Source: Alphaproteobacteria bacterium | GTDB taxonomy: Bacteria > Pseudomonadota > Alphaproteobacteria > SP197 | Reading direction: 5' to 3' | Length of the DNA stretch: 64,000 bases | NCBI GenBank assembly: GCA_965228895.1 | Contig: OZ245842.1 | Coordinates: forward strand, 3,936,001-4,000,000 | Shown here: positions 23,016 to 45,438 of the stretch, in pieces | Layout of the letters: each line of letters begins with the position of its first letter | Numbering within the stretch: the stretch's first letter is position 1 | Notes under the pieces: model-generated | What the model saw: the letters and a program-made list of their open reading frames with translations, nothing else | What the model was told of the DNA's origin: nothing | Databases searched by the model: none | Made by a program: the position numbers and the translations under genes

Positions 23016-23027
23016 CGTTGGCGTCGG

Positions 23028-23113: not shown

Positions 23114-23138
23114 TCGCGCGCGCCGGCGCGCGAAAATC

Positions 23139-24815: not shown

Positions 24816-24897
24816 GGCCCGGCTCCCTGGAACACTGCTTCGGTGCTATAAACCCTCTATAGAGCAGCCCTACGACCGGTCAACACCACGCGCAACC

Positions 24898-26931: not shown

Positions 26932-26994
26932 GGCGGCTTTCCTCGATCCGGCAACGGTGGCAATCGAGGCGAAGTAAACGGGTGAGCGGTCAGA

Positions 26995-27040
26995 GCGTAA
27001 ACGGCAAAAAGGATGGCCCTTGCGTAACGAAAACTTCACA
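26995..27040 (-). promoter_or_regulatory. Bipartite regulatory motif, copy 1 (TGTGAA-N7-TTACG-N19-CGTTTACGC), upstream of the LLM gene
   Basis: Same boxes and spacing as the copies at 29550-29595 and 32491-32535. Confidence 0.7.
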
Positions 27041-27127
27041 CGGCGTTCGGCACTTGCGGTCTCTTAGGGCCCGCTAACGGCGGGATCGACCAGTCGATGT
27101 TCAGTACCTGCACAGCGTAAGAGGCGC

Positions 27128-28312: not shown

Positions 28313-28321
28313 GGGCGGAGA

Positions 28322-29422: not shown

Positions 29423-29549
29423 GTGATGCCTCCCCAGAAATGAGCAATCGGGCCGCCCGTCGGTGTCAGACCGACGCCCGCGACCCCGTGCGAACGCAAA
29501 CCCGACCGCCCCGTCGAGCAAGCTTCATGCTCGGGCCGGAGCGCCTTGG

Positions 29550-29595
29550 GCGTAAACGTAGAAAATAGTTTGCTACACGTAACGTCAGCTTCACG
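29550..29595 (-). promoter_or_regulatory. Bipartite regulatory motif, copy 2 (CGTGAA-N7-TTACG-N19-CGTTTACGC), upstream of the SBP gene
   Basis: Near-palindrome CGTGA-N8-TTACG plus a downstream GTTTAC box, same spacing as copies 1 and 3. Confidence 0.7.
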
Positions 29596-29611
29596 CAAAA
29601 AAGCTTCGGGT

Positions 29612-31096
29612 TCAGCGCATCACGAACGGGTTGCCCATCGGCGCCGACGACGTGTTGATCCAGACCGTCTTCGGCCTTGTGTAGTCGTAGATCGCCTGGG
29701 CACCCGACTCGCGGCCATAACCGGAATCCTTGAAGCCGCCGAACTCGGCGATCGGCGACACCACCCGATAGGTGTTGATCCAGACAATGCCGGCGCGAAT
29801 CTGCTTTTGCACCCTGAGCGCCCTGGCGATGTCCTTGGTGAAGATGCCGGACGCCAGGCCGTACTTGGTATCGTTGGCCTTGGCGATCACCTCGTCCTCG
29901 TCCTTGAAACGCAGCACCGACAGCACCGGGCCGAACATCTCGGTGTCGACGATCTCCATCTTCTGGTCCGGACACTCGACGATGGTCGGCTCGTAGAACC
30001 AGCCGGCGTTCAAATGCGCCGGCTGTTTGCCGCCATGGTGGACGGTGCCGCCCTGCTCCTTCGCTCTGGCAACCTGTGTCTCGCACGCGTTGAGTTGGCC
30101 CAGGGTGCACAAAGGACCCATCTGGGTTTCCTCGGCCAGCGGATCACCGATCAGAATCTTTTCGGCGCGGCCCGTCAGGTCGGCCAGAAACGTGTCGTGG
30201 ATCTTCTCGTGCAGATAGATCCTGGAACCGGCAACGCAGCTTTGGCCGCTGGCGCCGAAGATGCTTGCCATCGAACCATTCACCGCGCTTTCAAGGTCCG
30301 CGTCGTCGAACACGACGACCGGCGACTTGCCGCCCAGTTCGAGCGACACCTCGGCGAAGTTTTCGGCCGAGTTGCGCACGATGTGCCGCGCCGTCTCGGG
30401 CCCGCCGGTGAAGCTGATGCGCGCGACCAGCGGGTGCGTCGTCAGCACACGACCGCACGGCTCGCCGAAGCCGGTGACGACGTTGACGACACCTTCGGGA
30501 AAGCCTGCTTCCTCGATCAGCTTGGCGAACTCCAGCATCGCGGCCGACGCGTGTTCCGACGCCTTCAAGACCACCGTGTTGCCGGCAGCCAGCGCCGGCC
30601 CGATCTTGACCGCGACCAGGAAGAGCTGGCTGTTCCACGGTACGACGGCTGCGATCACGCCGAGCGGTTCGCGTGTCGTGAAGACACAGAGGTCCGGCTT
30701 GTCGATCGGCAGCGTTTCGCCATGCACCTTGTCGGCAAGGCCGGCATAGAAGTGGAAGAACTCGGCGATGTACTTCGCCTGCCAGCGCGTTTCCTTCAGC
30801 ATCTTGCCGGTATCGATCGTCTCGGTGCGGCCCAATTCCTCCGACTTGTCGGCCAGAAGATCGCCCAGGCGGCGCAGGTACTTGCCGCGTTCGGTCGGTG
30901 TCATCGACGCCCACAGTCCTTCGCTGAACGCGCGGTGCGCGGCTTTGATGGCGCGGTCGACATCGTTTTCGGTCGCCGCCGGGATCTTCGCCCATACCGC
31001 GCCCGTCGACGGGTTGACACTGTCGAACATGCCGCCGTCTTCGGCGTCACACCACGCGCCGTCGATGAACATCTGATAGGATTTTGCTTCGCTCAT
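29612..31096 (-). CDS. Aldehyde dehydrogenase (TgnC-like)
   Basis: VPWNSQLFL, SFTGG, LELGGKSP, GQSCVAGSR, EMFGPVL, FGGFKDSGYGRE. Confidence 0.93.
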   Translation of the reverse strand: MSEAKSYQMFIDGAWCDAEDGGMFDSVNPSTGAVWAKIPAATENDVDRAIKAAHRAFSEGLWASMTPTERGKYLRRLGDLLADKSEELGRTETIDTGKMLKETRWQAKYIAEFFHFYAGLADKVHGETLPIDKPDLCVFTTREPLGVIAAVVPWNSQLFLVAVKIGPALAAGNTVVLKASEHASAAMLEFAKLIEEAGFPEGVVNVVTGFGEPCGRVLTTHPLVARISFTGGPETARHIVRNSAENFAEVSLELGGKSPVVVFDDADLESAVNGSMASIFGASGQSCVAGSRIYLHEKIHDTFLADLTGRAEKILIGDPLAEETQMGPLCTLGQLNACETQVARAKEQGGTVHHGGKQPAHLNAGWFYEPTIVECPDQKMEIVDTEMFGPVLSVLRFKDEDEVIAKANDTKYGLASGIFTKDIARALRVQKQIRAGIVWINTYRVVSPIAEFGGFKDSGYGRESGAQAIYDYTRPKTVWINTSSAPMGNPFVMR

Positions 31097-31200
31097 GACG
31101 CGACCTCCCCAACTCGATTCGTAAATGAACCTAGTGCACGTCTCCCGGTCGTGGCTAGATGTATGGACGGAACAGCACCATCAACGAAGGAACGATCGTC

Positions 31201-31590
31201 ATGTCGAAGGCAAAGGAAATCATCGGCGGGCCGCTGGTTATCGGCGGTCGAACGCTATCGCTGTCCAGGGCCGTGCGCGCCGGCGACATGGTCTATCTGA
31301 CCGGCCAGATTCCCATGAAGGACGGTGCGCCGATGACCGACGGCAGCATCGAAGACCAGACTCGCGTGACCCTCGACCTCATCACCGAAACCCTGAGCGA
31401 GGCCGGCTGCACGCGCGATGATGTCGTGAAGGCGATGGTCTGGCTGCGCGATGTCGAGGACTTCCCCGGCTTCAACAGCGTCTATGCCGAGTACTTCCCA
31501 AAAGACCCACCGGCCCGATCGGCGGTGCTGACCCAGTTGCTGGTCGACGTGAGGATCGAGATCGAGGTTGTCGTCTATAGCCCGCAGTAG
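31201..31590 (+). CDS. RidA/YjgF family protein
   Basis: LSRAVRAGDMVYLTGQIP, FNSVYAEYF, PPARSAV (conserved Arg), IEIE. Confidence 0.92.
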   Translation: MSKAKEIIGGPLVIGGRTLSLSRAVRAGDMVYLTGQIPMKDGAPMTDGSIEDQTRVTLDLITETLSEAGCTRDDVVKAMVWLRDVEDFPGFNSVYAEYFPKDPPARSAVLTQLLVDVRIEIEVVVYSPQ

Positions 31591-31593
31591 GTG

Positions 31594-32493
31594 TCAACGC
31601 TGTGCCATCACCCAGTCGTGAAACCGTTGCGCGCCGGAACCCAGGCGCACGCCGCGTGGCGTGACCATGTAGACACCGTAGCCTTTCGACTGAACGGCCT
31701 TCATCGGGCGCACGAGGTCACCGCGCGCCAGGTGATGATCGACGATGTTGCTGAAACCCAGCGCCACGCCGTGGCCTTCGATGGCGGCCTGGATGATGTT
31801 GGCGTAGTTGTCGTAACCCAACGTGCGGAAGTTCGCCGGCAGTTTGACGCCGGCGCCTTCCAGCCACCACGTCCAGTCTTCGTCGGAATGCGGCGCGCCG
31901 TCCAGATTCAGGAGCGGCTGCGACAAGAGGTCGGCCGGCTTGGCGATGGGGCCCGCCGACTCCAAGAAATCCGGCGCGCAAACCGGGAACGTGTCGGTAT
32001 CGAAGAGATGCCGCGGCTTGAGGCCGGGCCAGGAACCGGAGCCGTAGCGCAGGCCGACATCGATGCCTTCCTCGATCATGTCGAGCGGCGCGTCCGACAC
32101 CCTGATGCGCAACTCCAGATCCTTGTTGGCCGAGCGAAACGCCGGCAGGCGCGGCGTCAGCCAAAATGTGGCGATGGCGACCGTGGCGGTCACGGTAACC
32201 CGGGACGACCCGGCGACGTGACCCAGTTCGCCAGCGGTCTTGGCGATGTCGCCCAGGCTCTTTGAGACCGTCGCATGAAGCGCGTGACCGGCTTCGGTCA
32301 GCTCGATGGCGCGGTGGCGGCGGAAGAAGAGATCGGTGCCCAGATGCTCTTCCAGGATGCGGATATGCCGGCTCACCGCCTCGCGGCTGACGGTCAGTTC
32401 CTGGGCCGCGCGGGTAATGCTCAAATGCCGGGCAGCCGCCTCAAAGGCGACCAGACTGTTGACCGGCGGAAGACGCATACGCAGGCTTTGCAT
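31594..32493 (-). CDS. LysR family regulator (GcvA-like)
   Basis: LPPVNSLVAFEAAARHLSITRAAQELTVSREAVSRHIR; FWLTPRL; divergent from the flavin reductase. Confidence 0.93.
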   Translation of the reverse strand: MQSLRMRLPPVNSLVAFEAAARHLSITRAAQELTVSREAVSRHIRILEEHLGTDLFFRRHRAIELTEAGHALHATVSKSLGDIAKTAGELGHVAGSSRVTVTATVAIATFWLTPRLPAFRSANKDLELRIRVSDAPLDMIEEGIDVGLRYGSGSWPGLKPRHLFDTDTFPVCAPDFLESAGPIAKPADLLSQPLLNLDGAPHSDEDWTWWLEGAGVKLPANFRTLGYDNYANIIQAAIEGHGVALGFSNIVDHHLARGDLVRPMKAVQSKGYGVYMVTPRGVRLGSGAQRFHDWVMAQR

Positions 32494-32535
32494 GAAAAAA
32501 AGCTTACGCGAAGATCAGCCTTTTTCAAGTTTACC
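32491..32535 (+). promoter_or_regulatory. Bipartite regulatory motif, copy 3 (CATGAA-N7-TTACG-N19-AGTTTACC), overlapping the LysR start codon and upstream of the flavin reductase
   Basis: Same spacing as copies 1 and 2; position typical of an LTTR autoregulatory site. Confidence 0.7.
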
Positions 32536-32598
32536 GAACGCCTCGGGAAACCCTCTACTGCGTGGCGTCGCACCGTGCCGCGAACCGGAGGTCTGATC

Positions 32599-33114
32599 AT
32601 GAGCTTTTTCGAATGCGCCCCCAGGCTTGGCTTTCACGACGCCTTTCGCCAGGCGATGCGCGGGGTCGCCGGCACGGCGCACCTGATCACCGCGGTCGAC
32701 AAGGAAGGCGCCTGGTACGGCATGGCGGCAACAGCCGTGTCGTCCGTGTCGATGGATCCACCATCCATTCTGGTTTGCATCAACCGCGACGCCGCGACGT
32801 GCGCGCCGATCGACGAGCGCGGCCAGTTCTGCGTCAACGTGCTGGCGGAGGATCACCGCGACCACTGCGCGCGCTTCGGCCGGCCGGACGCCCGCCACAC
32901 CCGGTTCCATCACGGCGAGTGGCTGGACCACGACGGCCTGCCCTATCTGGCCGACGCCCAGGCCGCCATCTTCTGCGACGTCGCGCAGCGCGTCAGCCAC
33001 GGCACGCATAGGATCTTCATCGGCAATGTCAGCGACATCATGCTGCCGCGCGAAACGGTCAATCCGCTGGTCTACCTCGACCGCAACTTCGTTTCGCTGG
33101 CCGCGACAGCCTGA
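32599..33114 (+). CDS. Flavin reductase (HpaC/RutF family)
   Basis: FRQAMR, GMAATAVSSVSMDPPSILVCIN, GTHRIFIG, PLVY; RBS GGAGG. Confidence 0.92.
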   Translation: MSFFECAPRLGFHDAFRQAMRGVAGTAHLITAVDKEGAWYGMAATAVSSVSMDPPSILVCINRDAATCAPIDERGQFCVNVLAEDHRDHCARFGRPDARHTRFHHGEWLDHDGLPYLADAQAAIFCDVAQRVSHGTHRIFIGNVSDIMLPRETVNPLVYLDRNFVSLAATA

Positions 33115-33245: not shown

Positions 33246-34058
33246 ATGGAAGCCACCGACACCGGCATGCGTCTTGAAAGGCGCGGCCATGTTCTGGAGA
33301 TCACGCTCGACCGGGGCAAGGTAAACGCCATCGACAACGCCATGAGCCGCGAGCTCGGCAAGGCGTTTGTCACCTTGCGCGACGATCCCGACCTCAGGGT
33401 CGGCCTGATCACCGGCGCTGGCGAAAAGATCTTCTCGGCAGGCTGGGATTTGAAGGCGCTCGACAGCGGCGACCAGGCGCTCGACAACTGGTGGGAGAGC
33501 GAGGACGCGGCGTCCGGTGGTTTCGCCGGCATCACCGAAATGTGGGACCTGAACAAGCCGGTCATCGCCGCGCTGAACGGCATGGCGATCGGCGGCGGCT
33601 TCGAGATCGCGCTGGCCTGCGACCTCATCATTGCCGCCGACCACGTCCAGTTCCAACTGCCCGAAATGCCGCTCGGCATCGTGCCCGACGCCGGCGCCCT
33701 GCAGCGTCTGCCGCGCCGCCTGCCCTATACGATCGCGCTCGAAATGCTGCTGATGGGCCGGCGCATGCCGGTCGAGGAGGCCCAGCGCTATGGCCTCGTC
33801 AATCTGATCGTGCCCGCCGCCGATCTGATGACGACGGCGCGCGCCTGGGCCGATCAACTGGCCGAGTCGGCCCCGCTTGCCGTGCAGACGGTGAAAGAGG
33901 TGCTGCGCGCCGTCGAGGACGACACCATCCAAACTGCATTCCACACCATGCGCACCGGCGATCTGCCGACCTATCGCCACATGCTGCGCTCCGACGATGC
34001 CAAGGAGGGCGTGCGCGCCTTCGTCGAGAAACGTAAACCCAACTTCAAGGGGGCCTAG
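33246..34058 (+). CDS. Crotonase; carnitinyl-CoA dehydratase (CaiD-like)
   Basis: NAIDN..SRELGKAF...RDDPDLRV.LITGAGEKIFSAGWDLKA, GGFAGITE, GGGFEIALACD; adjacent to carnitine dehydrogenase. Confidence 0.85.
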   Translation: MEATDTGMRLERRGHVLEITLDRGKVNAIDNAMSRELGKAFVTLRDDPDLRVGLITGAGEKIFSAGWDLKALDSGDQALDNWWESEDAASGGFAGITEMWDLNKPVIAALNGMAIGGGFEIALACDLIIAADHVQFQLPEMPLGIVPDAGALQRLPRRLPYTIALEMLLMGRRMPVEEAQRYGLVNLIVPAADLMTTARAWADQLAESAPLAVQTVKEVLRAVEDDTIQTAFHTMRTGDLPTYRHMLRSDDAKEGVRAFVEKRKPNFKGA

Positions 34059-34068
34059 GGAACCGGGA

Positions 34069-35025
34069 ATGGCGAGAAAAGAACCTGGCGCGGTAAAGCG
34101 CATCACCAGCATCGGCGCCGGCCCGATCGGCGGCGGCTGGTCGACCTACTTCCTGGCAAAGGGTTACGACGTCACCGCCTATATCCACGACGCCGCTGAA
34201 GAAGAACCGCTGCGCGGCCTGATCGATAACGCGTGGGCGGCCATGGAAGAGCTGGGTCTGGCCGAGGGCGCCTCGCGTGACCGGCTGACCTGCACGACCG
34301 ATCTTGCGGCGGCCGTCGCCGATGCCGAGTTCGTGCAGGAAAGCGTGCCGGAAATCCTGGATCTCAAACAGTCGATCTACGCCAAGCTCGGCGACATGGT
34401 GCCCGAAGACGTCGTGATTGCGTCCAGCACGTCGGGCCTGATGATGACGGACATCCAGGCAACGTGTTCGACACCGGAACGCACGGTCACCGGCCATCCC
34501 TTCAACCCGCCTTATCTAATGCCGCTGGTCGAGGTCGTCGGCGGCGAGAGAACGGCGCCGGAGACTGTCGAATGGGCCGGCGCGTTCTATGAGCACGCCG
34601 GCAAGGCGCCGTTGATGATGACCGCCGAGGTGCCGGGCTTTGTCGCCACGCGCCTGCAGGAAGCGATCTGGCGGGAGGCGCTGCACATGGTCAATGAGGG
34701 CGAAGCCACACCCGAGCAGATCGACACCGCCATCGTCAACGGGCCGGGGCCGCGCTGGGCGATCATGGGACCGTGCATGGTCTATCACGTCGGCGGCGGC
34801 GAAGGCGGCATGGAGTACTGTCTGGAACAGTTCGGCCCGGCGCTGAAACTGCCGTGGACCCGCCTGGTGGCGCCGGAACTGACACCGGAACTGCGCGCCA
34901 AGATGGTCGACGGCTGCGACCGCATGGCCGGCGACAAGGACTTCCGCCAGCTGACCCGCGAGATGAACGACGGTTTGGTCGCCATCGCCAAGGCGCTTAA
35001 CGCCATCAGGGCGGCATCGTCCTGA
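34069..35025 (+). CDS. lcdH: L-carnitine 3-dehydrogenase (3-hydroxyacyl-CoA dehydrogenase family), no fused thioesterase
   Basis: GAGPIGGGW, VQESVPE, ASSTSGL, GHPFNPPYLMPLVEVVGG, RLQEAIWREALHMV, GGGEGGM; context with CaiD-like and BKACE genes. Confidence 0.82.
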   Translation: MARKEPGAVKRITSIGAGPIGGGWSTYFLAKGYDVTAYIHDAAEEEPLRGLIDNAWAAMEELGLAEGASRDRLTCTTDLAAAVADAEFVQESVPEILDLKQSIYAKLGDMVPEDVVIASSTSGLMMTDIQATCSTPERTVTGHPFNPPYLMPLVEVVGGERTAPETVEWAGAFYEHAGKAPLMMTAEVPGFVATRLQEAIWREALHMVNEGEATPEQIDTAIVNGPGPRWAIMGPCMVYHVGGGEGGMEYCLEQFGPALKLPWTRLVAPELTPELRAKMVDGCDRMAGDKDFRQLTREMNDGLVAIAKALNAIRAASS

Positions 35026-35123
35026 ACCCAACGACCAGTTCACGACGAAATTCGCTTGGTGCGTCCGAAGGGATCGTGAAGGATGCGCCAAGACGAATCG
35101 CGACCGAACAAGGGGCAGAAACC

Positions 35124-35651
35124 ATGGCCGTTCCAGCAGAGCTTAAAGCCGTCTTCGAGGCCGACACGGCCGACGATGCCAAGATGGGCGACCTCATGAA
35201 GGTGCTGTGCGACGTGCTGGACTGCGATCGCTGCCTTCTGTTCCTGCGCGATCCCGATAGTCGCAAGTCGCGCTGCACCCATGGTTATGAGACCGACCCT
35301 TCCTATGCGCTTGACCGGCCTGATGACGGCTGGGCGACGGAACCGGAAAACCTGGTGAGCGACGACCCGATGTTCGCCGAGGCCATGCACAATCCCGAAG
35401 CGCTCTATATCGACAACATCGAGACCGCGTCGCCCGACCTTGTGAACGCTGCCTATGAGCGCGAACACTTCAAACACCAGGCGCTCGTCCACGCGCCGCT
35501 GCAGCAAGGCGGCAAGCTCTACGGCATTCTGGAGCCCTGCACGATCGCCGCACCACGCCAATGGACCGATGCCGACCGCGAGACGATCGCCTGGACCATG
35601 GAACAGCTAACCCCGATCGCCGTGGCCTATGTCGCCGCGAACTGTCACTAA
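35124..35651 (+). CDS. Stand-alone GAF-domain protein
   Basis: [35 protein letters not shown] are typical GAF features. Confidence 0.78.
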
Positions 35652-35716
35652 TCCTTTTGCGGCCCCGACCTTTTGACAACCCGGGGGCCGCCCCAACCCA
35701 TGAGGACCGAACGACC

Positions 35717-36604
35717 ATGAATACCGACGTCATCATCACATGCGCCGTGACCGGCGCCGGCGACACCACCGGCAAGAGCGACAAGGTGCCGGTGACACCG
35801 GAGCAGATCGCCGACGCCGCCATCGAGGCCGCCAAGGCGGGCGCGGCCGTCGCCCACATGCATGTGCGTGACCCTGAGACCGGCAAGGGCGCACGCGATG
35901 TCGAGCTGTTCCGCGAGGTCGTCGACCGGGTCAAGGCGAGCGACACCGATGTCGTGATCAACCTGACCGCCGGTATGGGCGGCGACTTCGTGCCCGACGA
36001 GAACGATCCGACCGTCGCCGCGCCGGGCAGCGATCTGATCGGGCCGAAGGAACGGCTGGCTCATGTCGAGGCGCTCCGCCCGGAGATCTGCAGTCTGGAC
36101 TGCGGCACCATGAACTTCGGAAACGGCAACGAGACCTATATCAACACCGCGGCCTTCATTCGCCAGATGGCGGCCGACATCAAGGAACTCGGCGTCAAGC
36201 CGGAGCTTGAGGTCTTCGACCTCGGCCAGGTGCGCCTGGCGAGCCAGATGGTGACCGAGGGTTTGATTGCCGAACCACCGCTGTTCCAGGTCTGCCTCGG
36301 CATTCCCTGGGGTGCGGGCGCCGATACCCGCTCCATGACCGCCATGGTCGACGGCCTGCCCGAAGGCGCCAACTGGGCGGGCTTCGGCATCAGCCGCATG
36401 CAAATGCCGATGGTGGCGCAGGCCATGCTGCTGGGCGGCAACGTCCGCGTCGGGCTGGAGGACAACATTTATCTCGATCGCGGCGTCCTGGCATCGAACG
36501 GCGATCTTGTGGCACGCGCGGTCGAGATCATCCAGCGCCTTGGCGGCAAGGTCCTGAATCCCGAAGAGGCCCGTCAGAAGCTGGGATTGCCGACCAAGCA
36601 TTAG
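35717..36604 (+). CDS. Beta-keto acid cleavage enzyme (BKACE/Kce; CdhC-like dehydrocarnitine cleavage)
   Basis: [46 protein letters not shown]. Confidence 0.92.
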
Positions 36605-36666
36605 AGCGGATTCACCCGCCTTGACGGGGTCGCAAAGCGATCCCATCACAACAGGATCTGCTCTAA
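36601..36666. repeat. Short inverted-repeat element with TTAGAGC...GCTCTAA ends (CIR/Bru-RS/MITE-like)
   Basis: Arms TTAGAGCGGAT and ATCTGCTCTAA (10/11 match), internal hairpin GGGGTCGC-AAA-GCGATCCC; contains the BKACE stop codon. Confidence 0.55.
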
Positions 36667-36798
36667 TGGATCGAAAGTATTAGGAAGACTTATCCACAAG
36701 GGGTGTCTTGTTTTACCCCCTATTGGTTAGTACTTCGTTCGGTGTTTGTTTCGCGATGTTCTCATTTCCGAGCAGCCAGCTCGGGATTCACCGCTGAA

Positions 36799-37563
36799 TC
36801 AGGTGGAATCGCTCGATAACGCGCCGCCGTCCATGGCCAGCATAGAACCTGTCATGAACGCGGCCGCTGGCGAGCAGAGAAACAGGATGCCCTGGGCGAC
36901 CTCCTCGGCGGTGCCGACGCGGTCCAGCGGGTACCATTCCTTCAGATCGTCGATGGTCGCGCCGGGTTTGCCGAAGATATCGAGGTTCTGGCCGCCCATC
37001 TCGGTCGCGATGACCGCCGGGCAGACGCAGTTCACGCGAATGTCCGGCGCCAGCTCCTGGGCCATGGCGCGGGTCAGGTTGACCACCGCGCCCTTGGTCG
37101 CGCAGTAGACGGTGGTCTGAGCCGAGCCGGCGAGACCGGCACTGGAGCCCAAATTGACGATCGCGCCCTTTGAGGCGCGCAGCGCCGGCAACAGCGCGCG
37201 CGACAGGAAGAACGTCGCCTTGACGTTGATGTCGTTCAGGCTGTCCCACGCCGCCTCGTCGCTGTCCTCCATGGAGGCCACGACGTAGATGCCGGCGTTG
37301 TTCACCAGGTAGTCCAGACCGCCCAGACCGTCGACCGCGGCCTTGGCGACCGCCTCGCAGACCGCGACCTCGGATAGATCGCCGGGCGCCGGCACCATGT
37401 TGTCGCCACCCAGATCCGCCATCAGCCGGTCGACGCTTTCCTGGCTGCGACCGTTGACAGCCACACTCGCTCCGGCTTCAAGAAACGCCACCGTCGTGGC
37501 GCGCCCGATGCCGCGCGTCGCGCCCGTCACCAAAACTTTCTTGCCGGAAAAATCCATGGTCAT
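36799..37563 (-). CDS. SDR family oxidoreductase (classical)
   Basis: TGATRGIG, LVNNAG, YCATK, MDGG. Confidence 0.93.
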   Translation of the reverse strand: MTMDFSGKKVLVTGATRGIGRATTVAFLEAGASVAVNGRSQESVDRLMADLGGDNMVPAPGDLSEVAVCEAVAKAAVDGLGGLDYLVNNAGIYVVASMEDSDEAAWDSLNDINVKATFFLSRALLPALRASKGAIVNLGSSAGLAGSAQTTVYCATKGAVVNLTRAMAQELAPDIRVNCVCPAVIATEMGGQNLDIFGKPGATIDDLKEWYPLDRVGTAEEVAQGILFLCSPAAAFMTGSMLAMDGGALSSDST

Positions 37564-37566
37564 CTC

Positions 37567-38445
37567 CTACCAGCGCAACAGGGGGATCGCCGCGACCGGG
37601 CGGACATTGGCGTCGCGGCAGGCGGTGTCGATCAAGTGTTGATCGGGCATGGCGTCAGGAGCAATGCCCCAATCGTGGGCCGGCAGGCCACCGGTAATCC
37701 ACACCGCGTCCAGCCCGGCCAGACGGGCGCCCAGAATATCGGTGTGCAGGCCGTCGCCGATCGCCAGCATCGAGGCGCCAGGCGCTTCGCCCAACACGTC
37801 CAGACAGTGGCGATAGACGCCGGGCAGCGGCTTGCCTTCCTGGCGCATGTCGCCGCCCAGTTCGACAAAGCGCTCGGCAATGCGCCCGGCACACAGTTCT
37901 CGGGACTCGCCACGCAACACCGACTTGTCGGGATTGGTACAAACCATCGGCAAGCCCAATTCCAGGAATTCGGCCAACATGGTCTCAAAATCGGAGAGCT
38001 GCTCGTCGCGGGAGCGGATGCCGCAACACAGGACGAAGTCGGCGTCCTTGGCCTCGGCCACGCGTTCGAAGCCGAGGCCGTCCAAGAGCTTGGCGTCGGG
38101 CTCCGTGCCAATATGAAAGAACCGGTGGCCCAGTCCGGCATACCAGGGATCGGTCGCCTCCTCGATCTCCAACCGGACCGCTTCACCCGCCGTCATGATG
38201 GCATCGTAGGTGCCGGGCTCGACACCCATGCGGCCGATCTGATGCGCGACGGCCGACGACCGGCGCGGTGCGTTGGAGAGGAAAATGACCTTGGCGCCAT
38301 CGCCTCTGACCCGCGCCATCCAGGCGAGCGCGGCGGGATAGGCCTCTATGCCGTTATGCAGGCAACCCCACAGGTCGACCACATAGACATCATAGCCGGC
38401 ATCCAGTTCCGAAAGGCCGGCAAGCCTTGGTATCCCTGCTGTCAC
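37567..38445 (-). CDS. HAD-superfamily hydrolase, class IIA (TIGR01459-like)
   Basis: DLWGCLHNG, LSNAPR, CTNPD, GKP, IGDGLHTDILGA. Confidence 0.92.
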   Translation of the reverse strand: MTAGIPRLAGLSELDAGYDVYVVDLWGCLHNGIEAYPAALAWMARVRGDGAKVIFLSNAPRRSSAVAHQIGRMGVEPGTYDAIMTAGEAVRLEIEEATDPWYAGLGHRFFHIGTEPDAKLLDGLGFERVAEAKDADFVLCCGIRSRDEQLSDFETMLAEFLELGLPMVCTNPDKSVLRGESRELCAGRIAERFVELGGDMRQEGKPLPGVYRHCLDVLGEAPGASMLAIGDGLHTDILGARLAGLDAVWITGGLPAHDWGIAPDAMPDQHLIDTACRDANVRPVAAIPLLRW

Positions 38446-38448
38446 GCC

Positions 38449-38913
38449 TCAGCCGCCGTCGGACGTCGCCGCGTCCGTCATGCCGCCCAACCCCTTGTTC
38501 ATCATCTCTATTCGCGCCTCTTCGCCCTCGATGCCATAGCGCTCGACAATCAGCACTTCCGGCTTGGCGTAGGCGAGCCAGACCTTGCCGTCGGCGTCCT
38601 CGTAGACAACCACCTTGATCGGCAGGTCGATTCCGATCAGCGGATTCTTCGCCATCAGCGGCGTGCCAAGCGCGGGCTTGCCAAAGACCAGAACCTGGTT
38701 CGGCGCCAGGTCCATTTCGACAGACGCGGCCGCGGCGGCATGGTCGACCCGTGCGATCACGACGAACTCCTTCTCCTGAACGATGGCCTCCAGGCGATCC
38801 ATCGTCTCCTGCACCGAATGGGCGCTCGCCTTGATGATAAAGGCGTCGTTTGCCGCCGCCTGCATAGGCAAGGCAACGGCGATGAGTGCGAACAAGGCGA
38901 ACAGTCTTTTCAT
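38449..38913 (-). CDS. DUF302 domain exported protein
   Basis: Signal peptide; ARVDHAAAA, FGKPALGTPLM, GIDLPIKVVVYED. Confidence 0.88.
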   Translation of the reverse strand: MKRLFALFALIAVALPMQAAANDAFIIKASAHSVQETMDRLEAIVQEKEFVVIARVDHAAAAASVEMDLAPNQVLVFGKPALGTPLMAKNPLIGIDLPIKVVVYEDADGKVWLAYAKPEVLIVERYGIEGEEARIEMMNKGLGGMTDAATSDGG

Positions 38914-39033
38914 GGCGGTCTCTCCGGTTTCGGCGCCCGGCGCACCATGCCAGATAGGCACCACGTGCCGTCAAGGACGGAACACGCGAGCGCCGGTTCA
39001 ATCGGCCGTGAAACAGGGCCGCGCAAGGCAGCG

Positions 39034-40173
39034 TTAGAGATCCTGTCTGGTTCCCAGGCCGCGATCCAAGATCGTTTCGACGGCCAGGATCATGGTCATG
39101 TAGCCCTGCCAGTCGACGTTGTCGGGATCGACATGGGTGAAACTCGACACCAGAAAGAGATCGGTGTCCGGCACGGCCGATTGGAGGTTCAGGCTCTCGG
39201 TATAGGGCACGATCTGATCGTCGAGCCCATGGACCAGGATAAGCTCGCCTGCCAGCGGTTCGACGTCATGGCGCGATGGCGAGAGCGCCGTCAGCGACGC
39301 AAGGATCGATGGCGGCAAGGCCTCAAGCAGCGCGCCGGTCTGATCGGGATCACGGTTTTCGAACAGATCCATCAATGCCAACGCGTCGGTCCCCAGATAG
39401 CCGCGCAGGTTGGAGAGGTCGACATTGGGATCCTCTGCCTTTTGCCGCGCGGCTTCCTGCAGCAGATCGCCTTCGGCCGGGTCATGCCAGCGCGCGGCGT
39501 TGGCGGCCATGAAAACCCAGCCGGCGCGCAGGTTGCCGGGACCGTACTGCCAAGTCGTCTCGCCGGTCTGACGAAACGCACCGGTGGTGAGATAGGTGAT
39601 AACGCTCTCAGCGTCGTGATAGCCGCCCAACGCGACGACGTAATCGACCTCAGCGGCAACGCGTGGATCGATCGCCGCGACAATCGCCGGTCCGGCGGCG
39701 TAGGAAACCGCCGCCATACCGACCGGTGTATCGTCGCCGGCATCGCCGGTCCGCGCCTTGATTGTCGCAATCAACCCTTCGACATCGACCTCGCTGACCA
39801 TCAGGCTGCGCGACCCCGGCAGGTCGGGCACGTGAACGGCGAAGCCGGCGCGCGCGAACGTCTTGGCGAGCGCCATCAGGCGCATATCGTCTTTGCCGGC
39901 CGGAGAAAATCCCGGCACCAGGATCAAGTGACCGCGATACCCGGCACGGTCGACATAGGTGTCAACGCCAAGGCTTTCGCCGGAAAGGGGCACGAACCCG
40001 GTCGAACGAACGGGCGCATCAGTCAAATCCTTGATCAGGCTTGCCCCGTCGGCGGCCACCATGTCCTGCAGTACCATGGCCGGCGTGGCGAAGCGCCACA
40101 GCAGAAAGCCGGCAACGATGAAACAGACAACGAGCAGCCCCAGGCCGGTGCGGATCAGAAGTCGGCGCGTCAC
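39034..40173 (-). CDS. Membrane-anchored alpha/beta-hydrolase-fold protein
   Basis: N-terminal TM helix, LVPGF, AVSYAA elbow-like motif, LVHGLDDQIVP, late His (FTHVD). Confidence 0.75.
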   Translation of the reverse strand: MTRRLLIRTGLGLLVVCFIVAGFLLWRFATPAMVLQDMVAADGASLIKDLTDAPVRSTGFVPLSGESLGVDTYVDRAGYRGHLILVPGFSPAGKDDMRLMALAKTFARAGFAVHVPDLPGSRSLMVSEVDVEGLIATIKARTGDAGDDTPVGMAAVSYAAGPAIVAAIDPRVAAEVDYVVALGGYHDAESVITYLTTGAFRQTGETTWQYGPGNLRAGWVFMAANAARWHDPAEGDLLQEAARQKAEDPNVDLSNLRGYLGTDALALMDLFENRDPDQTGALLEALPPSILASLTALSPSRHDVEPLAGELILVHGLDDQIVPYTESLNLQSAVPDTDLFLVSSFTHVDPDNVDWQGYMTMILAVETILDRGLGTRQDL

Positions 40174-40379
40174 GGACGTGCTTTCTTCACCGTGGGCCGG
40201 CGGGCATGGGCGGACGGTTTGATGTTATGGCTTGCAGCATGGCCGAGGCGCCTGAACTCTCTACCGAACAGAGGGCATTAGACCCTCTGGAAGATGGCAA
40301 TCATGGGGCGATCGCGCGACCCTTCGCCGACGTCCCGACAAAGGGCGGTACGATCGTTACGCCCGTCGACGATTGCCGT

Positions 40380-41354
40380 TCAGGCCGACTTGCGGCGGTG
40401 ATCGAAATTGCGGTTGGTGAACGCCAGGATGTGGTCGAGGTAGCGGATCGGCGGGAACGCAGGCGGTCTGTCGGCGTTCTGGCAGGTCGGCAGGCAGGCG
40501 ATCTCGGCCTCGAAATCCGGATCGAAGAAGAACGGGATCGAATAGCGTTCGGCGCCGGCCAGATTGACCACCCGATGCGGCGTCGAGGGGTAGAGACCGT
40601 TGGTCCAGCGGCTCAGGATCTGGCCGATATTGACCAGAAACATGCCGGGCATAACGGGTGCCGGAAACCATTCGCCGTCGCGGCTTTGAATGTCGAGCCC
40701 GCGAACGTCGGCTTGCGCCAGATAGGTCGTGAAGCCGGCATCGGTATGCGGCCCGGTGCCGAACTCCTCACCGTCGAAGCGGTCCTGCGGCGGGTAGTGC
40801 GAAATGCGCAACGTAATGCTGGGTTCGCGGAACGATCCGCTGAAATAGTCTAGCGGCAGATCCAGTGACGCGGCGAACAGCGGCAGCATGCGGTGGCCGA
40901 GCGCCTCCATGGCGTTCATGTACTCCAGCATGGCGGGCCGAAAGCCAGGAAGCTCCGCGGGCCACTGGTTCAGACCGCGCAACGGAAGACCGGCCACGAC
41001 GGCGGGGTCGTCGGGGTCCCGGTCACGCTTCATAAAGTATGATGCCACCAGATTGGGCCGGGTTGCCGCATGCACCGTCGAGCTGCGCTGCATGCTGGTT
41101 TGCGAGGCCATGTAGCCGATGTTGTGCTCGTTGATCGTGTAGGCCTGTTTGACGTCCAGCGGCAGGGCGTGAAGCGCGCGGGTTTCGGCGAACGCGCCAT
41201 CCACGGTTTCCTGGGGCACGCCATGGCCGGCCAGAAAAAAGAACCCGACATCGATGCAGGCGGCCCTGAGTTCCCGGCCAAGACGTTCGTGAGAGGCCTC
41301 GTCGCCTGCCTTCAGCGATCCGACATCGATGACCGGTATGCCGCCGCTTTCCAT
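40380..41354 (-). CDS. 2-oxoglutarate/Fe(II) oxygenase (isopenicillin N synthase family)
   Basis: IPVID, ACIDVGFFFLAGHG, PHTD (HxD), STPHRV, RYSIPFF. Confidence 0.92.
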   Translation of the reverse strand: MESGGIPVIDVGSLKAGDEASHERLGRELRAACIDVGFFFLAGHGVPQETVDGAFAETRALHALPLDVKQAYTINEHNIGYMASQTSMQRSSTVHAATRPNLVASYFMKRDRDPDDPAVVAGLPLRGLNQWPAELPGFRPAMLEYMNAMEALGHRMLPLFAASLDLPLDYFSGSFREPSITLRISHYPPQDRFDGEEFGTGPHTDAGFTTYLAQADVRGLDIQSRDGEWFPAPVMPGMFLVNIGQILSRWTNGLYPSTPHRVVNLAGAERYSIPFFFDPDFEAEIACLPTCQNADRPPAFPPIRYLDHILAFTNRNFDHRRKSA

Positions 41355-41406
41355 CGTTGGCCTCGTTACCTGTGGCTGATACCCGCCATGGTAGACCAGC
41401 GGGCCC

Positions 41407-42918
41407 CTATCGGGTACCCGCGTCAAGACACGCGTCGAACGCGCCGTCGCGCAGCATCGTGGTAACCGCCTCCAGATCAACCGTCAGGCTGCGGTCCTGA
41501 TCCAGCGGCTCGACCGCCTCGCGCACGCGGTCGCGCAGCGCTTGGGCGACCGGCGCCACCCGATCCAGACGGCGCAGATCGAGGGCCTGTGCACCGACGA
41601 TCAGTTCGGCCGCCATGATCTGTTGCATAAGTTGAAGTGCCTCCGCGGCCTTGCGCACCGCGAGCGGCGTCATCGGCGCGTGATCCTCAACCGGGTAACC
41701 CATGGAATCGAGCAGGCTGGCCGGTTGCGCCTTCATCTTGACCTCCTTGGCGAGCGCCTCGGTGGTCGCCGTCATCAGCGCGAGACCGGTATGGACAATG
41801 CCGCGCTCGGTCAGCAAATCCGGCAGATCGGTGAACTCGGACTTCATCATCCGCGCGACACGTTGCGACGCCAGCGTTGCCGTCTGCGCAACCGCCAAGC
41901 CGAGAGCGTCGAAAGCGACGGCCATGGCGGGCGTGTGAAAGTTGCCGTTCGACAACACCTCTTCGTCATCGACCAGAACCAGCGGGTTATCGCCGGCGCC
42001 GTTAATCTCAACGAGCACGTTGGGCGCGCAGAAATCGATGGCCGCGCGCAAGCTGCCGTGCACGTGGCTGACACAGCGCAGGCTGATCGGATCCTGAAGC
42101 CGTCGCGGTTCGCCGTCCTCGAACAGGGTGCTGCCTGCCATCTTGTCACGCAGACTGGCCGCTGCCCGGGCTTGACCGGGAGCACCGCGCGACCGGACGA
42201 CCCGGGGATCGATGGGGCTGGGGTTGGCACGAAACGCCTCGAATGAGAGGACCGCGATGGCATCCAGAAGTTCGGCCATATGGGCGGCATCGTGAAGGAC
42301 CAACGCGCCATAACCCGCCGAAATCGAGTTGGCGCTGCACAGTGCCAAGCCTTCTTTCTCGAGCGGTTCGACCGTCTCGATACCGGCCCTTGCCATGGCG
42401 TCGGGCCCAGTCATCGTCTCGTTGGCGAACGTCGCATGGCCCTCGCCGATCAGCGGCAAGGCAAGGTTGGCGAGGAGCGGCAGGTCCGACGCGCCGAGAG
42501 AACCGACCGACGGCACCAGCGGATGAACGCCGGCGTTCAACATGGCGCACTGGGTCTCGACGATAAGCGGCCTGACGCCGGCGCCACCCTGGGCCATGCT
42601 GCTGGCGCGCGCGGCCAGCGCGGCGCGTACGACCTCGTCCGGCAGATAAGGTCCGGCGCCGCAGGCACGCGCCAGGACGACGATCCGGCTGGAACCTTGG
42701 CGCTGGTCCTCGTCAATCTCGTGGACCACCCGTCCGCCGAGGCCACGGGTCATCCCGTAAACCGGCCTGCCCTCTTCGGCAAATCGCTCGATCACCTGTC
42801 GCGAGCGGTCCATCCGCTGCCGGGCCGGCTCGCTCAGCGCCACCGTGCCGCCGCCGCGCGCAATCGCCACAATCTCGGCGATACCGATCGCCTCCAAACC
42901 CAAATGAACGTCTGCCAT
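41407..42918 (-). CDS. Aromatic amino acid lyase family protein lacking the MIO tripeptide (ergothionase/trimethylammonia-lyase-like)
   Basis: PVYGMTRGLG, GSLGASDL (no ASG), KEGLAL, LQDPISLRC, DNPLV, SNGNFH, EDH; RBS GAGGAGG before ATG 42918. Confidence 0.85.
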   Translation of the reverse strand: MADVHLGLEAIGIAEIVAIARGGGTVALSEPARQRMDRSRQVIERFAEEGRPVYGMTRGLGGRVVHEIDEDQRQGSSRIVVLARACGAGPYLPDEVVRAALAARASSMAQGGAGVRPLIVETQCAMLNAGVHPLVPSVGSLGASDLPLLANLALPLIGEGHATFANETMTGPDAMARAGIETVEPLEKEGLALCSANSISAGYGALVLHDAAHMAELLDAIAVLSFEAFRANPSPIDPRVVRSRGAPGQARAAASLRDKMAGSTLFEDGEPRRLQDPISLRCVSHVHGSLRAAIDFCAPNVLVEINGAGDNPLVLVDDEEVLSNGNFHTPAMAVAFDALGLAVAQTATLASQRVARMMKSEFTDLPDLLTERGIVHTGLALMTATTEALAKEVKMKAQPASLLDSMGYPVEDHAPMTPLAVRKAAEALQLMQQIMAAELIVGAQALDLRRLDRVAPVAQALRDRVREAVEPLDQDRSLTVDLEAVTTMLRDGAFDACLDAGTR

Positions 42919-43069
42919 CGCGCCACCTCCTCTACCGGCGGGTGAATCCGCCCCGCCACCTGCTTCTAACGGGGCGGCCGCACCGTGCCAATTGTTGGAA
43001 ATTCCTGCCGGGTGATCATGGTCACTGGCAATTCGTACGGATGTGCCAACATTTAAGGTGTTCATAAGA

Positions 43070-43155
43070 ACAACGAGTTTCGAAGACAGCGCAAACCTCT
43101 TCGAATCAGCACTTTAGCCCCCGCTGAACCAGGCCTCGGGTCAGCGGGGGCTTTC
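43070..43155 (+). ncRNA. Candidate small RNA (two hairpins, the second terminator-like); ends approximate
   Basis: Stem TTCGAAGA/TCTTCGAA (43079-43105), then a 12-bp stem AGCCCCCGCTGA/TCAGCGGGGGCT (43116-43152) with a short T run, inside a divergent spacer. Confidence 0.35.
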
Positions 43156-43389
43156 ATGTCTGCTCCACAGCACCCATCCGGCTGGCCAAACCACCCCTTT
43201 CGATCCGTACGCCTTCGCCCAAAGGGTGTGATGAGCATCATCAATGCGACCGGTTTTCGTCAGGTTCCCTTGCCGGCCTGCGAAGCCAACAAAACCGCAA
43301 TCGGTCGTTGCTCCGACACCGACGGACGTCTTATCAAGAACACATTCTGGCCCTAGTGATTCGGCCGGGGCTGTCTTGCGGGGATTGTG

Positions 43390-45438
43390 ATGAAAAAGCT
43401 TCTGATTGGCGTTGGCGTTGTCATCGTCCTGTTGATTGTCGTCGTGCTGGTCGCGCCGATGTTCATTCCGATCGATTGGGTGAAGGAACAAATCGTCGCA
43501 CAGGTGAAAGAGAGCACCGGCCGCGACCTGAAACTGGACGGCGATGTCAGCGTGTCGCTGTTGCCCACCACCTCCGTCGAGGTCACCGACGTCGCACTCA
43601 GCAACCGGCCGGGCAGCGATGTCACGGACATGGTGACCCTGAAAGGCCTGGAGTTGGATGTCGGGCTTTTCCCGCTGATCGACGGCCAGCTCGAAATCAA
43701 CCGCTTCGTCCTGATCGAGCCCGATATCTATCTGGAAGTCGATCAGCAAGGCCAGGGCAACTGGGTGTTTGAGGGCCAGGGCGGCGAGACCACGACGGCT
43801 GACGACACCTCCGGCGACACATCGTCAGGTGGCGGCGCCGATCTCGGCAGCATCAAACTGGGCGACGTGCGGATCGAGAACGGCCGCCTGACCTATGCCG
43901 ATCTCGCCACCGGCGAGACGACCGTTATCTCGGACCTCAACATCACCTTCGATCTGCCGGACATGGATAGCCCCTTTGTCGGCGACGGCAGCCTGACGTT
44001 CAACGACCAGCCGGTCACCTTCACGGTCTCGACCGGCGCGCCCGCAGCGCTGAATGCAGGACAGCCCGTCGATGCGTCCTTCGAGCTGACGAGCGACAGC
44101 GTCACAACCACCTTCAACGGCACCATGGCGACCGGCAACGGCCCAGCGCTGAACGGCCAGTTGGATCTCCAGATCCCCAGTCTGCCGGGTCTCGTCGCGT
44201 GGGTCGCCGAACCTCTGCCGGACGACACACCGGCACCGGAGGCCATCACAATCACCGGTCAGCTCGATCTGGCCGCGGCGCGGTATGCGTTCAACAGCGC
44301 TTCGATCAAGATCGACGAGATGACCACCGAGGGCGACATGGCGGTCGACATGAGTGGCGCCAAGCCGATGGTGACCGCATCCCTCGCCGTCGATCACATC
44401 AACCTCAATCCCTATATGGGCGACACGGCCGGTGATGGCGAAGCCTCAGGCGATAGCGGCGGTACCGCTGACGGCGGCGATACAGGCGGCCAGCAACAAG
44501 GCTGGAGCGAGGAACCGTTCGACTTCTCCGCTCTTGATCTTCTTGACGCCGATCTCTCGCTGACTGCCCAGGCCATTACCATTCAGGAAATCAAGATTGG
44601 TCCCAGCGCCGTCGACGTCGACATCACCGATGGTTCGATGAACGTGAACCTGAAGGAGATGGAGCTCTACGACGGTCAGGGTACGGCGACGGTCGAGCTC
44701 AACCGCGGCGGCTCGGTGCCGCAGATCAACAAGACGTTGAATGTCCAGGCGATCCAGGCGGAACCGCTGCTGACCGACGCCGCCGGGTTCGAAAAACTGT
44801 CGGGCACCGGCGCCATTCAGATGCAGGTTACAGCCTATGGCAACTCGCAAAAGGAGATGGTCGACACGTTGAACGGGGATGGCAGCATCATGTTCCAGGA
44901 CGGCGCCTTCCAGGGCATCAACCTGGCGAGCATGCTGCGCAACTTCTCTTTGGAAGCCCTGCAAGGCGCCATGGACTCAACGCAGAAGACCGACTTCGCG
45001 GAGCTGTCAGGCACGTTTACCATCGACAACGGTATCGTCAGCAACAACGACCTCTTGATGGTCGCACCGCTGCTGCGTGTGAATGGCGAAGGCACGATAC
45101 CTATGCCGCCGCGCACCCTCGACTATCTGATCGTGGCCAAGGCGGTTGCCTCGCTGGAAGGTCAAGGCGGCGAAACGGATCAGAGCGGCGTTCCGGTGCC
45201 GTTGAAGATCACGGGTTCATGGGATAACCCGTCGGTTCAGCCGGACATGGAAGCCATGGCGCGCGGCCTGTTGGAAGACCCCGATGCCATCGGCGACCAG
45301 CTGCAGCAGCTTCAGGAGGGACTGGGCGGCGGCGAAGACGGATCCGGCGGTGTCGGCGATTTGCTTGAGGGTGTCACCGGCGGCGGCGAAGAAGGCTCCG
45401 GCGACGCGACGGAAACACTCAAGGGCCTGTTCGATTAA
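43390..45438 (+). CDS. AsmA family protein
   Basis: N-terminal TM anchor, ESTGRDLKLDG, GQGNW, C-terminal TDFAELSGTFTIDNGIVSNNDL and VPLKITGSWDNP. Confidence 0.9.
   Translation: MKKLLIGVGVVIVLLIVVVLVAPMFIPIDWVKEQIVAQVKESTGRDLKLDGDVSVSLLPTTSVEVTDVALSNRPGSDVTDMVTLKGLELDVGLFPLIDGQLEINRFVLIEPDIYLEVDQQGQGNWVFEGQGGETTTADDTSGDTSSGGGADLGSIKLGDVRIENGRLTYADLATGETTVISDLNITFDLPDMDSPFVGDGSLTFNDQPVTFTVSTGAPAALNAGQPVDASFELTSDSVTTTFNGTMATGNGPALNGQLDLQIPSLPGLVAWVAEPLPDDTPAPEAITITGQLDLAAARYAFNSASIKIDEMTTEGDMAVDMSGAKPMVTASLAVDHINLNPYMGDTAGDGEASGDSGGTADGGDTGGQQQGWSEEPFDFSALDLLDADLSLTAQAITIQEIKIGPSAVDVDITDGSMNVNLKEMELYDGQGTATVELNRGGSVPQINKTLNVQAIQAEPLLTDAAGFEKLSGTGAIQMQVTAYGNSQKEMVDTLNGDGSIMFQDGAFQGINLASMLRNFSLEALQGAMDSTQKTDFAELSGTFTIDNGIVSNNDLLMVAPLLRVNGEGTIPMPPRTLDYLIVAKAVASLEGQGGETDQSGVPVPLKITGSWDNPSVQPDMEAMARGLLEDPDAIGDQLQQLQEGLGGGEDGSGGVGDLLEGVTGGGEEGSGDATETLKGLFD

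Follow-up and report, generated by a model that had tools for sequence, protein, structure and literature searches.

A histidine ammonia-lyase homologue lacking the MIO triad, encoded next to a 2-oxoglutarate/Fe(II) oxygenase in a marine alphaproteobacterial family, is a probable trimethylammonia-lyase for a histidine-derived betaine

A stretch of 64,000 nucleotides from the genome of an alphaproteobacterium (assembly GCA_965228895.1, contig OZ245842.1, positions 3,936,001 to 4,000,000 of the forward strand), referred to below as the window, carries on its minus strand a gene for a protein with the histidine ammonia-lyase (HAL) fold and, immediately downstream, a gene for a 2-oxoglutarate (2OG)/Fe(II) oxygenase. 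The lyase is short of one residue at the site from which the 4-methylideneimidazole-5-one (MIO) cofactor of HAL is formed. The source genome is 5.53 Mb long and is assembled in one contig. The features of the locus, in window positions, are the following:

41407-42918, minus strand: lyase gene, HAL fold without MIO, 503 amino acids (PF00221, 441.9 bits)
42736-42759, minus strand: Tyr loop YGMTRGLG, residues 54-61, with Tyr54 as the presumed base and Arg58 common to ergothionase 6S7J
42667-42669, minus strand: codon of Arg84, equivalent to the ring-binding His83 of HAL (family alignment; His in 6S7J)
42484-42492, minus strand: MIO site Ala143-Ser144-Asp145 with the Gly missing (translation and HMMER alignment)
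41767-41769, minus strand: codon of Ala384, which aligns with the thiolate-binding Lys384 of Treponema ergothionase (profile alignment)
41355-41406, minus strand: spacer of 52 nucleotides with a GAGG ribosome site (sequence inspection and hairpin scan)
40380-41354, minus strand: IPNS/ACCO-type 2OG/Fe(II) oxygenase, 324 amino acids, with His203-x-Asp205, His260 and Arg270-x-Ser272 (Pfam)

The open reading frame that encloses the lyase gene spans 41407-43065 on the minus strand, and its translation includes VGSLGASDL and VYGMTRGLG; in longer form, the translation of the lyase includes VPSVGSLGASDLPLLANLA and RPVYGMTRGLG. The start is the ATG at 42918-42916, with AGGAGG located 8 nucleotides upstream, which fits both the stored protein of 503 amino acids and the lengths of its homologues (501-507 amino acids). 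Residue numbers refer to the 503-residue protein; most computations were carried out with 41407-42921, which contains one extra leading codon (GCG). No obvious signal peptide was seen at the N-terminus by inspection. An earlier note on this DNA, made from the sequence alone, had read the signature as GSLGASDL, with Ala-Ser-Asp codons at 42492-42484, and the Tyr loop as YGMTRGLG; translation from the ATG at 42918 matched the former exactly and placed the latter at residues 54-61 (42759-42736). In the HMMER alignment with Pseudomonas putida HAL (GSVGASGDL), the lyase reads GSLGAS-DL, with a single-residue gap opposite the Gly of the Ala-Ser-Gly triad.

The deletion of this Gly is genuine and is due neither to chance nor to an assembly error, since it is common to all alignable homologues and a separate HutH is present in the same genome. 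When the query was aligned with its 120 best homologues (46-99% identity), the Gly was absent from 119 of the 119 rows that cover the site, and the only Gly-bearing row was the canonical HutH of the source genome itself. The gap was also found in 80 of 80 genome loci from GTDB species representatives (the row of one locus, L034, is uncovered at the site), and a genome of the same genus holds the same lyase gene at 84% identity. An assembly error in the 3-bp gap, which the earlier note had named as a possible refuter, is contradicted by these homologues and loci. Three PF00221 genes are present in the source genome: the lyase at 41407-42918, a more divergent MIO-less paralogue, and a canonical HutH, located elsewhere, which has the motifs GSVGASGDL and YGINTGFG and scores 583.6 bits. 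The lyase scores 386.1 bits with the HutH model TIGR01225, below the cut-off of 539.15. An ordinary MIO-dependent HutH that has lost its Gly through a sequencing or assembly error would agree with the best NCBIfam names of the lyase, which read histidine ammonia-lyase though at a score under the cut-off, and with public sources, which label its relatives "histidine ammonia-lyase" or "aromatic amino acid lyase". Set against the gap in homologues of independent assemblies, the low model score and the real HutH elsewhere, this explanation has a vanishing probability and is already refuted.

The states of active-site residues in the family were read against the HutH of the source genome, using the query and the same 120 homologues. 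Roles of Asn195, Tyr280 and His83 we take to be those given in the HAL literature. Tyr53 of HAL is unchanged in 118 of 118 covered rows, while Thr57 is replaced by Arg in 114 of 118 covered rows and His83 by Arg in 119 of 119. At Asn195, Ser is found in 116 of 121 rows, and at Tyr280 all 121 rows have Ile, Leu or Val (Ile in the lyase). Gln277, Arg283, Asn313 and Phe329 are unchanged in every one of the 121 rows, and Glu414, which is Glu411 in the lyase, in 120 of 120 covered rows. With the Gly deleted, Asn195 replaced by Ser and Tyr280 by Ile, formation of MIO in the lyase is predicted to be impossible. The protein thus shares with P. putida HAL (1B8F/1GKJ; TIGR01225) its PF00221 fold, about 31% identity and equivalents of Tyr53, Gln277, Arg283, Asn313, Phe329 and Glu414, but has neither the Ala-Ser-Gly triad, nor a TIGR01225 score above cut-off, nor Asn195, Tyr280 or His83. 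We conclude that the deleted Gly, the replaced residues, the low model score and the separate HutH firmly support the claim of the earlier note that the lyase is not HutH. By sequence, the lyase has the features of the MIO-independent trimethylammonia-lyases in the broad sense, namely a HAL fold in which the triad is missing while the catalytic Tyr and the Arg, Gln and Asn that bind the carboxylate remain.

For comparison with solved structures, a profile of 35 family members was used, which gave 372.9 bits with the Treponema denticola ergothionase 6S7J and 378.7 bits with P. putida HAL. The ergothionase is 28% identical to the lyase and, like it, has the HAL fold without MIO. Five derived states are common to 6S7J and the lyase family: a MIO loop shortened by one residue (SIGEGD in 6S7J), an Arg in the Tyr loop (YGLNRGVG in 6S7J), Ser and Asn at HAL positions 195 and 197, respectively, and, at 280, an aliphatic residue (Leu in 6S7J). 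The Gln, Arg, Asn, Phe and Glu residues are retained in both. Two positions differ: HAL position 83 is His in 6S7J and Arg84 in the lyase, and position 384 is the thiolate-binding Lys in 6S7J and Ala384 in the lyase. The AlphaFold model of the lyase (pLDDT 91.9) matched HAL and tyrosine aminomutase structures with Z of 43-46, and its top match in a fold search was 6S7J (Z 46.6, root-mean-square deviation 1.9, 495 residues aligned), in a near-tie with tyrosine aminomutase (46.1) and HAL (45.4).

The shared derived states and the top structural match would be expected if the lyase were a genuine ergothionase that converts ergothioneine to thiourocanate and trimethylamine. We consider this quite improbable. 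The available text of two preprints calls Lys384 essential for thiolate binding in ergothionase (10.1101/2025.08.13.670108; 10.64898/2026.04.22.720169), and this residue is Ala in the lyase and non-Lys in 52 of 52 rows of the group to which the lyase belongs (group A, below); the ring-binding His83 is Arg. The sole urocanase-family gene of the source genome scores 698.8 bits with the thiourocanate hydratase model, under the cut-off of 930, and genome matches to the S-methyl-thiohydantoin desulfurase model NF058532 are all sub-cut-off (best 109.2 against 450; the thiohydantoin desulfurase model NF058529 was not run on this genome). With Arg84 in place of the ring His and Ala384 in place of the Lys that binds the thiolate, ergothioneine thiolate is probably not what the enzyme acts on.

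According to the same text, two MIO-less enzymes of Shewanella act on other betaines: Swoo_3913 of S. woodyi is a histidine betaine lyase, and SO_3299 of S. oneidensis is an N(pi)-methyl histidine betaine lyase, which shows that the substrates of the MIO-less branch extend to histidine betaines that are sulfur-free or ring-methylated (10.1101/2025.08.13.670108; 10.64898/2026.04.22.720169). As far as the papers' wording, rather than the sequences, allows a comparison, both resemble the lyase in lacking MIO and in having a residue other than Lys at 384. Both are described there as periplasmic, and their genes accompany those of flavocytochrome c reductases that serve anaerobic respiration, whereas the lyase has no obvious signal peptide, carries Arg84 and has an O2-dependent oxygenase as its partner. 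Compared with the ligand set reported for Swoo_3913, Glu411 and a non-Lys residue at 384 are present in the lyase, but the ring ligand, a retained His117 in Swoo_3913, is replaced by Arg84.

An exhaustive HMMER search returned 9072 proteins at E ≤ 0.001, and the 150 best representatives at 50% identity were analyzed. The MIO site is gapped in 87 of these, has Gly in 62 and is uncovered in one. Arg at position 83 was found in 53 of the 150, all 53 of them gapped, and His83 is retained in 29 gapped representatives. The clades were defined on the 80 genome loci plus the window lyase. Both groups have Arg83. Group A (52 rows, including the window lyase) combines it with an Arg in the Tyr loop and a residue other than Lys at 384, group B (29 rows) with a Thr or Ser in the loop and a Lys at 384. 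In a quick maximum-likelihood tree rooted on the HutH of the source genome, group A is a single clade (SH-aLRT 100), and the window lyase lies within a clade of 22 rows (SH-aLRT 98) from one marine alphaproteobacterial family. Placement of loci L084, L052 and L027 on this tree is unsure because of their long branches.

Neighboring open reading frames in the 80 loci were clustered by a simple heuristic, which missed the lyase itself in 6 loci, and the neighbor counts are therefore lower bounds. In group B, an OpuAC betaine-binding protein is encoded in at least 12 of the 80 loci, in 11 of them on the same strand and within 3 kb of the lyase, and an OCD/mu-crystallin gene in at least 15, in 10 of them within 3 kb; both are accompanied by ABC permeases and ATPases. 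Metagenome-assembled genomes of Burkholderiales in this group show the order HutU-HutI-HutF-OCD-TctC-solute-binding protein-OpuAC-lyase-permeases-ATPase, with HutU (927.3 bits), HutI (468.9 bits) and HutF (644 bits) all above their cut-offs. In four actinobacterial loci (L062, L068, L069, L083), the group B lyase directly follows the OCD gene, with no Hut genes nearby; the loci suggest that OCD and lyase are the minimal conserved pair of this group. MttB-family genes (PF06253) occur near the lyase in at least five loci, four from group B (L072, L078, L079, L047) and one from group A (L034); in the first three the MttB gene directly and divergently adjoins the lyase gene, and in L047 two genes lie between. 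Among the group A loci, that of Pandoraea anhela (L052) has the lyase gene followed by genes for S-methyl-thiourocanate hydratase (956.7 bits, cut-off 880), S-methyl-thiohydantoin desulfurase (494 bits, cut-off 450) and a sulfurtransferase. A TauE sulfite exporter is encoded downstream of the lyase in L054, rhodanese genes occur near the lyase in L027 and L052, Cys/Met pyridoxal phosphate enzyme genes near that of L027, and an M20 peptidase gene precedes the lyase gene in L020. The lyase of Lichenihabitans has D-hydantoinase (445 bits), CN-hydrolase, DAO and RidA as neighbors, a set that could belong either to a hydantoin route or to pyrimidine catabolism. Within the 22-row clade, the recurrent neighbors are the oxygenase, a GNAT protein, an alpha/beta-hydrolase-like gene, a HAD-IIA hydrolase and a molybdopterin oxidoreductase.

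The stop codon of the lyase gene ends at 41407 and the ATG of the oxygenase gene is at 41354. The 52-bp distance on the same strand given by the earlier note, as well as its assignment of the downstream gene to the IPNS family, were borne out: both DIOX_N (87.5 bits) and 2OG-FeII_Oxy (86 bits) domains are over their cut-offs. No terminator-like hairpin was found in the spacer, and a promoter and terminator scan of 36500-43500 revealed nothing exceeding shuffled expectation. The HxD...H iron triad and the RxS 2OG site are conserved in seven intact orthologues. The oxygenase matched no NCBIfam family, and its protein-atlas clusters are labeled only with the generic "2OG dioxygenase". The closest solved relatives, with the same HxD...H and RxS ligands, are PaIPNS (6JYV, E = 2e-62) and Anc357 (9OVH, E = 2.9e-49). 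The latter, in the available text, is a reconstructed ancestor of PaIPNS-like proteins related to ethylene-forming enzyme, and the physiological substrate of the PaIPNS-like group is given there as not established (PMC12329707). Nothing connects PaIPNS or Anc357 to histidine betaines. True ethylene-forming enzyme structures match weakly (E about 1e-19), and the Pfam family of the oxygenase includes O-demethylases (matches 9vgi and 5o7y).

An intact oxygenase gene stands beside the lyase gene in 7 of the 80 loci (tblastn), while 72 others gave no match at E ≤ 1e-5. In the remaining locus, L050, the oxygenase gene (11598-12305) is decayed: its coding sequence is split between two frames, and residues 144-209 are gone, the HxD iron ligands among them. 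This copy appears to capture the partner gene in the course of being lost. Every one of the nine carriers, with the window and L050 counted, belongs to the 22-row clade. The presence of the oxygenase requires at least four changes on the tree, which is consistent with a single gain and later losses. Among 41 related genomes, the lyase was found in 18, including 17 of the 24 others that belong to the same family, and in none of 16 sampled genomes of other families (E ≤ 1e-100). Oxygenase orthologues (at least 69% identity) were found in 7 of the 41, in all seven beside the lyase: six directly adjoin it, and in G012 the distance is 1.2 kb. The related genomes also have weaker paralogues (37-51% identity) at other places. 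The genomes are kin, and hence the pair counts are not independent events. Eleven of the 18 lyase-bearing genomes have no intact oxygenase orthologue, and one of these holds a broken copy. The linkage of the two genes is real, co-inherited and confined to one alphaproteobacterial family; because the lyase also occurs alone, the oxygenase gives the impression of an accessory enzyme limited to this clade. The earlier note did not recognize the pairing from described ergothioneine catabolism; likewise, in searchable papers we found no description of either the pairing or the Arg-83 clade, though subscription literature was partly uncovered and an earlier description is possible. The literature found on the enzymology of S-methyl-ergothioneine, thiourocanate and ergothioneine sulfonate also contained none.

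The genomes with the lyase and no oxygenase would be accounted for if the lyase were a plain hercynine lyase, releasing urocanate and trimethylamine, with urocanate passed on to HutU and the oxygenase functionally unrelated. The non-Lys residue at 384, which the papers' text also reports for the histidine betaine lyase of S. woodyi, agrees with this explanation, as do the presence in the genome of one bona fide HutU and of HutI- and HutF-like genes, and the location of sister group B lyases in true Hut operons. However, the characterized hercynine lyase retains its ring His117, by the same text, where the window family has an invariant Arg; the occurrence of oxygenase orthologues solely beside the lyase argues for a shared pathway; and group A neighbors elsewhere are sulfur-related. 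On balance, we regard this explanation as unlikely, though it deserves more weight than a genuine ergothionase.

The derived states shared with ergothionase, the retained base, carboxylate and ring ligands, and the betaine, Hut and S-methyl-thiourocanate contexts of relatives together lead us to infer, with somewhat better than even confidence, that the lyase is a cytoplasmic, MIO-independent trimethylammonia-lyase of the HAL fold acting on a histidine-derived betaine, probably a ring-modified one, and that the oxygenase is accessory to the same pathway. In a mechanism modelled on ergothionase, trimethylamine would be removed from the alpha-carbon of the betaine to give a urocanate-type acrylate. 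We propose that MIO would not be needed because a quaternary ammonium leaves readily enough without it. Tyr54 on its mobile loop would abstract the beta-proton, the carboxylate would be held by Gln275, Arg281 and Asn311, and the ring by Glu411 and Arg84. The substrate would more likely be a ring-modified betaine, such as S-alkylated or oxidized ergothioneine or N-methyl hercynine, or else hercynine itself; both hercynine and a ring-modified derivative could fit the evidence. The oxygenase, putatively co-transcribed with the lyase, would act on either the lyase substrate or the acrylate formed from it. Of the proposal in the earlier note, a trimethylammonia-lyase for ergothioneine, hercynine or another amino-acid betaine, the enzyme class thus appears to stand, on the strength of the states shared with 6S7J and the contexts of relatives. 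Ergothioneine as the substrate is unlikely, given Ala384, Arg84 and the lack, in the source genome, of over-cut-off matches to thiourocanate hydratase and to the desulfurase model NF058532.

A more specific form of this pathway, which we put forward only tentatively and hold to be rather doubtful, is a two-step, O2-dependent shunt. The lyase would act on an S- or N-substituted histidine betaine, e.g., S-methyl-ergothioneine or an ovothiol- or N-methyl-hercynine-type betaine, and the oxygenase would then remove the substituent on the ring of the acrylate, through demethylation at S or N or through desulfurization, to yield urocanate for HutU. If so, ergothioneine catabolism would have, in this shunt, a second route besides that through hydratase and desulfurase.

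Arg84 occupies the selectivity-switch position of the fold and Arg58 is nearby. Two extra arginines would bind an anionic side chain if the substrate were a non-imidazole quaternary amine, such as an aromatic or acidic amino-acid betaine, or carried another good leaving group. The genome is rich in methylamine and betaine functions (18 MttB homologues), and genes for a beta-keto acid cleavage enzyme (BKACE) and 3-hydroxyacyl-CoA dehydrogenase are present in the window. Yet the second ring ligand known from HAL and ergothionase, Glu411 in the lyase, is unchanged in every covered row of the family, and all informative contexts in the clade involve urocanase-family or Hut enzymes, so that we consider such a substrate improbable. 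It is more improbable still, to the point that we give it little credence, that the lyase is a catalytically inactive paralogue with a binding or regulatory role: while the cofactor has been lost and neither a transporter nor a downstream enzyme adjoins the gene in the source genome, the catalytic Tyr has been retained, as have the residues that bind carboxylate and ring, and the MIO-less relatives that have been solved and assayed are efficient enzymes.

Several observations weigh against the trimethylammonia-lyase reading. The fold search, made with a predicted model, does not separate ergothionase from MIO enzymes, since the Z values for 6S7J, for tyrosine aminomutase and for HAL differ by no more than about 1. 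In the available text, the characterized trimethylammonia-lyases all retain His at 83 (10.1101/2025.08.13.670108; 10.64898/2026.04.22.720169), and an enzyme with Arg at this position is without tested precedent. The contexts with a betaine transporter, MttB or a Hut operon come from sister group B and not from the 22-row clade of the window lyase, within which the oxygenase is the only recurrent informative neighbor; the sole strong context in group A, that of Pandoraea, comes from a long-branch sequence 46% identical to the window lyase. The source genome has no S-methyl-thiourocanate hydratase over cut-off (the sole urocanase-family gene reaches 718.9 bits against 880), the desulfurase matches given above stay far below threshold, no EgtD was found in the genome, and no betaine transporter is adjacent to the window lyase. 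Finally, the occurrence of the lyase without an intact oxygenase means that the oxygenase is dispensable for the lyase.

Other genes of the window that have counterparts near related lyases, or that bear on the fate of the product, are the following:

37567-38445, minus strand: HAD-IIA hydrolase of the TIGR01459 family (domain and family search)
39034-40173, minus strand: alpha/beta-hydrolase-like gene (Abhydrolase_6, 20.9 bits, weak and below cut-off)
23139-24815, minus strand: HutU, the sole urocanase-family gene in the genome (TIGR01228, 973 bits)
20790-21794, plus strand: OCD/mu-crystallin gene near HutU, 67-72% identical to OCDs inside group B operons

The first two genes are syntenic with the lyase pair: counterparts of the HAD-IIA hydrolase are 53-59% identical in L005, L007, L010, L011 and L050, and those of the alpha/beta-hydrolase-like gene are 34-38% identical in L007, L010, L011 and L050. 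HutU is the likely sink if the lyase pathway gives urocanate. Counterparts of the OCD gene are found in group B operons of Betaproteobacteria, Kiloniellales and Streptomyces. At 20790-25848, the OCD gene is clustered with those for an acyl-CoA dehydrogenase, HutU and a fatty-acid-desaturase-family protein, the last being 39-43% identical to genes that adjoin group B lyases (L047, L072, L079, L084). A further catabolic cluster lies between the HutU region and the lyase, at 25861-33114, and comprises a luciferase-like monooxygenase, a beta-lactamase-family protein, an ABC solute-binding protein, an aldehyde dehydrogenase, RidA, LysR and a flavin reductase. It is followed, at 33246-36604 on the plus strand, by genes for enoyl-CoA hydratase, 3-hydroxyacyl-CoA dehydrogenase, a GAF protein and BKACE in a row, a set reminiscent of the catabolism of carnitine or another betaine. 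Divergent urocanase classes of the related genomes (about 780 and 590 bits) were considered as thiourocanate hydratases and rejected: none reaches 930 bits, and in the two genomes compared (G017 and G019) the class of about 590 bits adjoins canonical HutH.

Outside the window, the HutH locus of the source genome (2895496-2903916, L102) adjoins HutI- and HutF-like amidohydrolase genes and two tandem MttB-family genes, an arrangement that could provide a demethylation route from methylated histidines to histidine. The third PF00221 paralogue (3387933-3389411, L103) encodes 492 amino acids with the motifs YGVTTGMG and GQGGAGEIL, lacks Ala-Ser-Gly, has Arg at the His83 position as judged by eye, and adjoins a TetR regulator gene; similar two-part matches were found in five of five related genomes checked.

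The lyase would thus belong to an unstudied branch of histidine-betaine trimethylammonia-lyases, with which the oxygenase partner has been inherited along in one marine bacterial family. The wider search suggests a large and probably misannotated set of enzymes, since 87 of the 150 nearest representatives are without the MIO Gly and 53 have Arg at the ring-binding position. The switch from His to Arg, the split between groups A and B at position 384 and the clade-specific oxygenase make the substrate specificity of the MIO-less branch directly testable. If these enzymes do release trimethylamine from histidine betaines, they would be an unrecognized source of this climate- and health-relevant amine in seawater and soil, and a turnover route for antioxidants of the ergothioneine or ovothiol type.

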